The notes below the pieces were generated by a model. The model did no database searches, was not told the origin of the DNA, and saw nothing but the letters and a program-made list of their open reading frames with translations. This document shows positions 30,842 through 30,901 of a stretch of DNA of 64,000 nt, piece after piece; position 1 is the stretch's first letter; the number at the start of each line of letters is the position of its first letter. A program made the translations under genes and the position numbers. Source of the DNA: Escherichia coli (lineage in GTDB: Bacteria; Pseudomonadota; Gammaproteobacteria; Enterobacterales; Enterobacteriaceae); assembly GCF_041886205.1 (NCBI RefSeq), contig NZ_CP169029.1; one strand, 5' to 3'.

Positions 30842-30845
30842 TATC

Positions 30846-30875
30846 TTAAGCCCTCTCCCGGTAGGTGAGGGCTTA
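30846..30875. terminator. Hairpin between convergent ggt and yhhY
   Basis: Inverted repeat taagccctc/gagggctta with a short loop immediately after the ggt stop. Confidence 0.6.
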
Positions 30876-30901
30876 AATGGCAAACTTAGATTGCAAATTC
30901 T

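Follow-up and report, generated by a model that had tools for sequence, protein, structure and literature searches.

Regions of genome plasticity, small segments situated between conserved core genes, are a general concept. In Escherichia coli K-12, the cluster yhhZ-yrhA::IS1E-yrhD-yrhB (b3442-b3446) was previously flagged as a genomic island, named 'Gist34' (PMC3309015), and the IS1 copy within yrhA is known as IS1E (PMC12428005). One publication presents the YhhZ protein as an 'evolved Hcp' whose HNH domain is degenerate (PMC2907695), and another places it among the polymorphic toxins of the His-Me finger type (PMC5714182); in K-12 it is an orphan, without a type VI secretion system (T6SS) apparatus (PMC6730261, PMC2907695). 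In the Hcp-ET effector-immunity modules, an N-terminal Hcp domain is combined with an HNH-type nuclease at the C-terminus, and the immunity gene lies downstream. Toxins of the Hcp-ET1 HNH type are delivered by the T6SS in STEC (PMC6730261, reviewing Ma et al. 2017), and delivery by this route together with neutralisation by the neighbouring gene has been reported only for the Hcp-ET1 of STEC (PMC6730261).

The locus studied here lies in a 64,000-nucleotide stretch of E. coli DNA, hereafter referred to as the window. It corresponds to the same chromosomal site as the K-12 islet, with the same flanking genes, but in the unoccupied state: the window lacks all of the 3,454 bp found in K-12 and has kept, next to the ancestral allele of the hairpin, 29 nt of tail sequence lost from K-12. 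Neither the cargo type of the Hcp-ET modules nor any component of such a module is present in the window. As in regions of genome plasticity, alternative AT-rich cargos (the Hcp-HNH islet, yrhB only, or a DUF4225 gene) share one intergenic spot, which has no integrase or att sites, and appear to spread by flanking homology. However, the ggt–yhhY site is very small (0–2.7 kb), and only three cargo types were seen. Taken as a whole, an ancestral junction, a later islet insertion in K-12 and about 70% of E. coli, and a recombinant haplotype in this strain form an explanation that we consider very likely to be correct.

Structure of the ggt–yhhY junction

The left gene, ggt (gamma-glutamyltransferase; 29099–30841, + strand; NCBIfam PRK09615, 1310 bits), encodes 580 aa from the annotated ATG and ends with a TAA codon at positions 30839–30841 of the + strand. 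It converges on yhhY (GNAT N-acetyltransferase, 162 aa; 30902–31390, − strand; NCBIfam PRK10140, 324 bits), the stop codon of which occupies positions 30902–30904 of the minus strand. Both NCBIfam models are equivalogs, and the identities of the two genes are secure. The original prediction, of about 60 bp with a single hairpin between the convergent stops, agrees with the measured values: the spacer (30842–30901) is exactly 60 bp long, is free of any island, and contains a hairpin at positions 30846–30876. The gene order in the window (ugpQ, yhhA, ggt, yhhY, yhhX, yhhW, gntR) is that of K-12, where it lies on the opposite strand.

In K-12 ER3413, a segment of 3,454 bp separates these stop codons and carries yrhB, yrhD, IS1A, yrhA and yhhZ (annotated as tssD), all co-oriented with yhhY. 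The K-12 layout and the coordinates given in the original prediction are thus both right, and a direct adjacency of ggt and yhhY in K-12, which would have contradicted the proposed absence of the yhhZ-yrhA-IS1-yrhB segment, was looked for and not found. BLAST alignment of the window with K-12 yielded two blocks, one ending at 30841 and the next starting at 30902, exactly at both stop codons.

Folding revealed a GC-rich hairpin, TTAAGCCCTC-T-CC/CGGTA/GG-T-GAGGGCTTAA, at positions 30846–30876, with a free energy of −21 kcal/mol and a z-score of −3.2 (1 of 200 shuffled sequences was equally stable). The stable GC-rich stem-loop lies directly 3' of the ggt stop (−19 to −21 kcal/mol), six Escherichia sequence variants keep a hairpin at this position, and all Escherichia variants fold into a stable hairpin (−18 to −26 kcal/mol). 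Substitutions in the stem preserve pairing, with A-T replaced by C-G in E. whittamii and G-C by C-G in one Escherichia species representative. Its position, stability and conservation suggest that this hairpin is probably a bidirectional terminator or a 3'-end hairpin for ggt and yhhY. A terminator scan did not call the window hairpin because there is no T-run on either strand; the flanking tails are TTAAATGG (+ strand) and TTAAGATA (− strand), and the K-12 allele has TATTTTGT. An Rfam scan of positions 30600–31700 gave no match at the junction and only RyhB further to the right. The RyhB sRNA gene (RF00057, 83 bits) is located at 31541–31605 (+ strand), in the yhhY–yhhX spacer, and its presence accounts for the near invariance of positions 31400–31700 among all the strains compared.

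Two hairpin alleles occur directly 3' of the ggt stop, an empty-type allele TATCTTAAGCCCTCTCCCGGTAGGTGAGGGCTTAA and a filled-type allele GGTTAGCGGCCCTCTTCGTGGGAAGAGGGC. The window hairpin is allelic to the ggt hairpin of K-12, GCCCTCTTC-GTGG-GAAGAGGGC, a counterpart that the original prediction had missed. The filled-type hairpin precedes all three cargo types, and the cargo begins right after it. Furthermore, APEC 102026 has a 59-bp hybrid spacer, in which a filled-type hairpin is followed by the empty-type tail TTAAATGACAAACTTATATTGCAAATTCT, which shows that the hairpins are allelic and that cargo enters just 3' of the hairpin. Since the first 31 nt of the spacer, corresponding to the hairpin, have an allelic counterpart in K-12, the alignment with K-12 that had been proposed for defining the island endpoints places the true insertion point beyond the hairpin, on its 3' side, and not at the ggt stop, where the BLAST block ends. 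The distal 29 nt of the spacer (TTAAATGGCAAACTTAGATTGCAAATTCT, 30873–30901) are absent from K-12, in which the islet takes their place. This tail is kept in APEC 102026, and the O157 (O157:H7-type) cargo retains a recognisable remnant, …GGCAATTTGAGAATATTCT. A search for the 60-bp spacer within the K-12 islet returned only chance matches of 12–25 nt and no real counterpart.

The E. albertii spacer differs from window positions 30857–30866: the inner part of its hairpin reads as the E. coli sequence reverse-complemented (CCTACCGG versus CCGGTAGG), with an unchanged outer stem; this difference is an inversion of the hairpin tip.

Recombinant haplotype around the junction

The window is 96.5–98.7% identical to K-12 overall (about 2% divergent), and there are no mismatches at all over positions 28601–30837. 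The left flank (27000–30837) has 0–3 mismatches per kb to K-12 and to the islet-bearing strains XYEH3934 and 1919D62. To the right of the junction, the window is about 2% divergent from XYEH3934 and 1919D62 over at least 5 kb, and the right flank (30838–36000, 5.2 kb) has 0–1 mismatches per kb to strain ET201, which has an empty site and a ggt gene 4–6% different from that of the window. A site-by-site comparison bracketed the breakpoint at 30803–30838: the last site at which the window matches K-12 and XYEH3934 and not ET201 is 30802, and the first at which it matches ET201 and not K-12 is 30838. The haplotype therefore switches within the last 39 bp of ggt. A K-12-like ggt end combined with an empty site was found in only seven genomes, six of which are identical to the window, the seventh being MB53. 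This clone comprises wlxctx60, LHM10-1, VE-T9, CP52E, XJ5.2, 6EVA and MB53. In MB53, the closest non-identical relative, an IS1 with a 9-bp target duplication has been inserted into the 3' end of yhhY (equivalent to window positions 30926–30934), truncating the gene.

Additional tracts identical to ET201 are present in the window at 8–11, 37–41, 43–46 and 62–64 kb, so that ET201-like sequence forms the wider background, and the XYEH3934-like tracts are short patches (12–15, 25–26 and 27–30.8 kb). This distribution favours the import of a K-12-like ggt tract. It thus seems rather likely that an empty-site lineage acquired this tract from an islet-bearing donor and that the tract ended where homology ended. 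The direction of recombination was judged from 64 kb only, a span on which it cannot be fixed. The view that this strain is a close relative of K-12 from which the islet was lost is weakened by the overall divergence of about 2%, identity being confined to positions 28601–30837.

The nearest relatives of the left flank, XYEH3934 and 1919D62, carry the islet, so a loss by allelic replacement has to be considered. According to this alternative, an islet-bearing ancestor resembling K-12 or XYEH3934 would have received ET201-like DNA from position 30838 onwards, over at least 5 kb and perhaps 18 kb, and the islet would have been replaced in the process. The identity or near identity of the left flank to islet-bearing strains is consistent with such an event, as is the almost invariable association of the K-12-like 3' end of ggt with a filled site outside the seven genomes mentioned above. 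However, the left crossover would have to fall, without any mechanistic reason, in the last 36 bp of ggt, and the import would have to be very long. In addition, ET201-identical tracts flank the locus on either side, and the XYEH3934-like ones are short patches. We therefore regard secondary loss as unlikely, although it deserves to be kept in mind. Under either reading, import or replacement, the 60 bp are an inherited ancestral-type allele and not a deletion scar.

The import of a K-12-like ggt tract into an empty-site chromosome, terminating in the last 36 bp of homology, also raises the tentative idea that gene-conversion tracts do not run past the islet border, which would act as a hard stop. 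We put this forward as a rather doubtful possibility.

The deletion of the islet in situ from a K-12-like chromosome, leaving a scar of 60 bp, is very improbable. The identity of ggt to that of K-12 is the only observation in its favour; the 60 bp include two elements missing from K-12, the 29-nt tail and the hairpin allele of ancestral type, they match the spacers of E. albertii, Escherichia sp. E1V33, ST131 and 042, and the 5 kb to the right also belong to a different haplotype.

The yhhY gene contains a hyper-divergent internal segment of 350 bp (30952–31301, − strand), with 76–78% DNA identity to K-12, ST131, O157 and all other Escherichia species, and 98–99% identity to strains 042 and ETEC4075. 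The standard allele is 90–94% identical among Escherichia species, so the allele of the window is the foreign one. The window and K-12 alleles have a dS of about 1.1 and a dN/dS of 0.13, values that denote an old divergence, roughly at the genus level, under purifying selection. The rare allele was found in about 160 of the 5,426 complete E. coli genomes surveyed (∼3%), and a search for a donor in 100,044 species representatives and 5.8 billion proteins recovered it only from E. coli. Selection for a different range of acetyltransferase substrates might explain the rare segment; a literature search for YhhY with microcin C found no papers.

We considered whether this divergent 3' part of yhhY was a piece of the island polymorphism. 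This was rejected, since all four combinations of allele and islet exist: empty with the standard allele (ST131), empty with the rare allele (the window and 042), filled with the standard allele (K-12) and filled with the rare allele (ETEC4075). The rare allele, occurring both with and without the islet, is therefore not a marker of the island edge, and the first 50 bp of yhhY adjoining the junction are conserved.

Several other parts of the window also vary between strains. A 3.5-kb insert absent from K-12 lies between gntU and yhgN (36808–40290), with genes at 36947–39043 and 38950–40245 (+ strand) whose products, a RecQ-like helicase and a protein resembling DprA, match PADLOC PsyrT (1057 bits) and PsyrA (660 bits), a defence/toxin-antitoxin pair. 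At least the RecQ-family gene is also found at this site in ET201, MB53, PT62 and 1919D62 (as a pseudogene in 1919D62). The livF–ugpB spacer (22498–23412) is 915 bp long, versus about 216 bp in K-12, XYEH3934 and ET201, and includes an ORF (22600–23364, + strand) of 254 aa whose product has TPR repeats and, at its N-terminus, a PLDc_N-like membrane segment. Between glgP and glpD, about 2.7 kb (52172–54870) are absent from K-12, in which only a yzgL pseudogene remnant is found. The ORFs of this region (51937–53454, 53557–54333 and 54336–54935, + strand) encode a PstS-like binding protein and two proteins without a Pfam match, and its content is different again in ET201 and XYEH3934. Positions 15001–17000 (livJ/panM) are about 10% divergent from ET201 and XYEH3934 and only 2% from K-12, which suggests that livJ has two deep allele classes. 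The ggt gene is unusually polymorphic, with 4–6% divergence between lineages. Finally, a 4-kb contig labelled as a Flavihumibacter MAG (CABHOW010000200.1) carries genes for a YhhY with the same sequence as the K-12 protein and for a YhhX that matches that of the window, and most likely corresponds to E. coli contamination of the Flavihumibacter bin.

Occupancy and ancestral state of the site

The distribution of filled and empty sites, which had been proposed as a check, was determined in the 5,426 complete E. coli genomes. Sites were classed by BLAST 'places' and coverage cut-offs, so that class sizes are approximate. The K-12-type yhhZ-yrhA segment was present in 3,830 genomes (3,766 at full length; 94–100% identical), so that most E. 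coli (about 70%) are in this state, with at least two other cargos at the same spot. A 1,855-bp cargo with a DUF4225 gene, typical of O157:H7/O55:H7 and relatives, was found in 343 genomes, and a yrhB-only state with a 431-bp spacer (strain 455 type) in 233. In 1,238 genomes, ggt and yhhY fell in one BLAST place (insert of less than about 1 kb); about 973 of these were strictly empty, with contiguous single alignments through the spacer, and the rest comprised yrhB-only sites, sites with IS1 or IS26 hits, and hybrids. The classes sum to about 5,379 genomes, leaving about 47 unassigned.

The outgroup scan, in which YhhY was searched for in one genome per bacterial species, recovered 40 loci, 37 of which hold both yhhY and ggt. 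The two genes are 41–130 bp apart in 33 of these 37. Direct adjacency was observed in E. albertii (gap of 69 bp), E. whittamii (77 bp), Escherichia sp. E1V33 (67 bp) and two more Escherichia representatives (66 and 67 bp), and also in Citrobacter, Enterobacter, Klebsiella, Lelliottia and Pluralibacter. The four occupied loci are those of Franconibacter, with a metNIQ-like transporter (2.9 kb), and of Leclercia and two others (238–1,241 bp). The window spacer is nearly the same as that of Escherichia sp. E1V33 and one species representative, and E. albertii shares its outer stem and tail. The empty junctions of E. coli ST131, 042 and SMS-3-5, E. albertii and E1V33 all have the same hairpin and tail as the window and a length of 60 bp (62 bp in E. 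albertii), with 2 of the 60 positions differing in ST131. However, their flanks differ from those of the window, which pairs a K-12-identical ggt with a rare yhhY allele common to 042.

The sharing of both the adjacency and the spacer sequence with the outgroups indicates that the empty junction is ancestral and the K-12 state derived. The identification of the window junction as the unoccupied ancestral allele is supported by contiguous flanks here, by empty outgroups with a homologous spacer, and by an insert that is foreign in GC content and cargo. The original prediction had left two readings standing, an empty site or a later insertion in K-12; the evidence supports the second wording.

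It is hardly credible that the filled state was ancestral in E. coli and that every empty site results from a loss. The islet is old within the species, with copies 94–100% identical in several phylogroups, as such a history would require, but all the other sampled Escherichia species and the neighbouring genera are empty with the same spacer, and the base composition of the islet is foreign. A collapsed or mis-joined contig hiding the islet has a negligible probability, given the six independent complete genomes 100% identical over 1,060 bp spanning the junction and the approximately 973 genomes with the same architecture.

Content and proposed spread of the K-12 islet

The islet without IS1 is 2,677 bp long, with an intact yrhA, in XYEH3934, 1919D62 and ETEC4075, as in most strains, and the IS1 within yrhA (+777 bp) was found only in genomes of the K-12 lineage, which has therefore gained it afterwards. 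An Hcp domain (PF05638, 1.6e-11) forms the N-terminal part of YhhZ, which also gives a weak hit to HNH (E = 0.005, below the Pfam threshold), and YrhB is an Imm35 immunity protein (4e-23). No Pfam family was matched by YrhA or YrhD. The yrhA gene overlaps the end of yhhZ by 4 bp, which would correspond to the usual layout of an effector-immunity pair. The GC content of the K-12 segment is 31–34%, versus 50–58% in the ggt and yhhY flanks. No terminal direct or inverted repeats were detected at the islet ends beyond AT-rich chance matches. At the borders of the filled allele, no integrase is annotated and there is no tRNA, and the distal 29 nt are replaced, not duplicated. The site does not qualify as the attB of an integrative element or transposon.

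We suggest that, in the original Escherichia junction, a GC-rich hairpin next to ggt, at which both transcripts probably ended, was followed by a tail of 25–29 nt extending to the yhhY stop. A 2.7-kb AT-rich islet was inserted later, between the hairpin and the yhhY stop. It encodes YhhZ, a putative orphan toxin of the type VI 'evolved Hcp' kind in which Hcp is joined to a degenerate HNH/His-Me finger, together with YrhA, the likely immunity protein of YhhZ, the tiny YrhD and an orphan Imm35 immunity protein, YrhB; IS1 then entered yrhA in the K-12 line. The islet probably arose once, by an illegitimate insertion that replaced the distal 29 nt, and has presumably since been exchanged between strains by homologous recombination within the core genes on either side. 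The empty allele of this strain lies on a recombinant haplotype, with a ggt gene identical to that of K-12 up to its last 4–39 bp and ET201-identical sequence from 30838.

The presence/absence polymorphism is in itself ordinary and largely known, the cluster having already been flagged as an island (PMC3309015) and YhhZ documented as an orphan evolved Hcp. The present analysis adds the endpoints (cargo 3' of the ggt hairpin, with 29 nt replaced), the polarity, the frequencies of four site states and the recombination joint. K-12 does not represent the default at ggt–yhhY, and yhhZ-yrhA-yrhB is a derived, putative orphan type VI toxin/immunity islet. The junction also illustrates cleanly how a recombination tract can stop at the edge of an indel, and these results may help in the annotation of the region or in the modelling of recombination near accessory genes. 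If gene conversion is indeed halted at the islet border, small accessory islets would set the edges of core-gene linkage blocks in E. coli.
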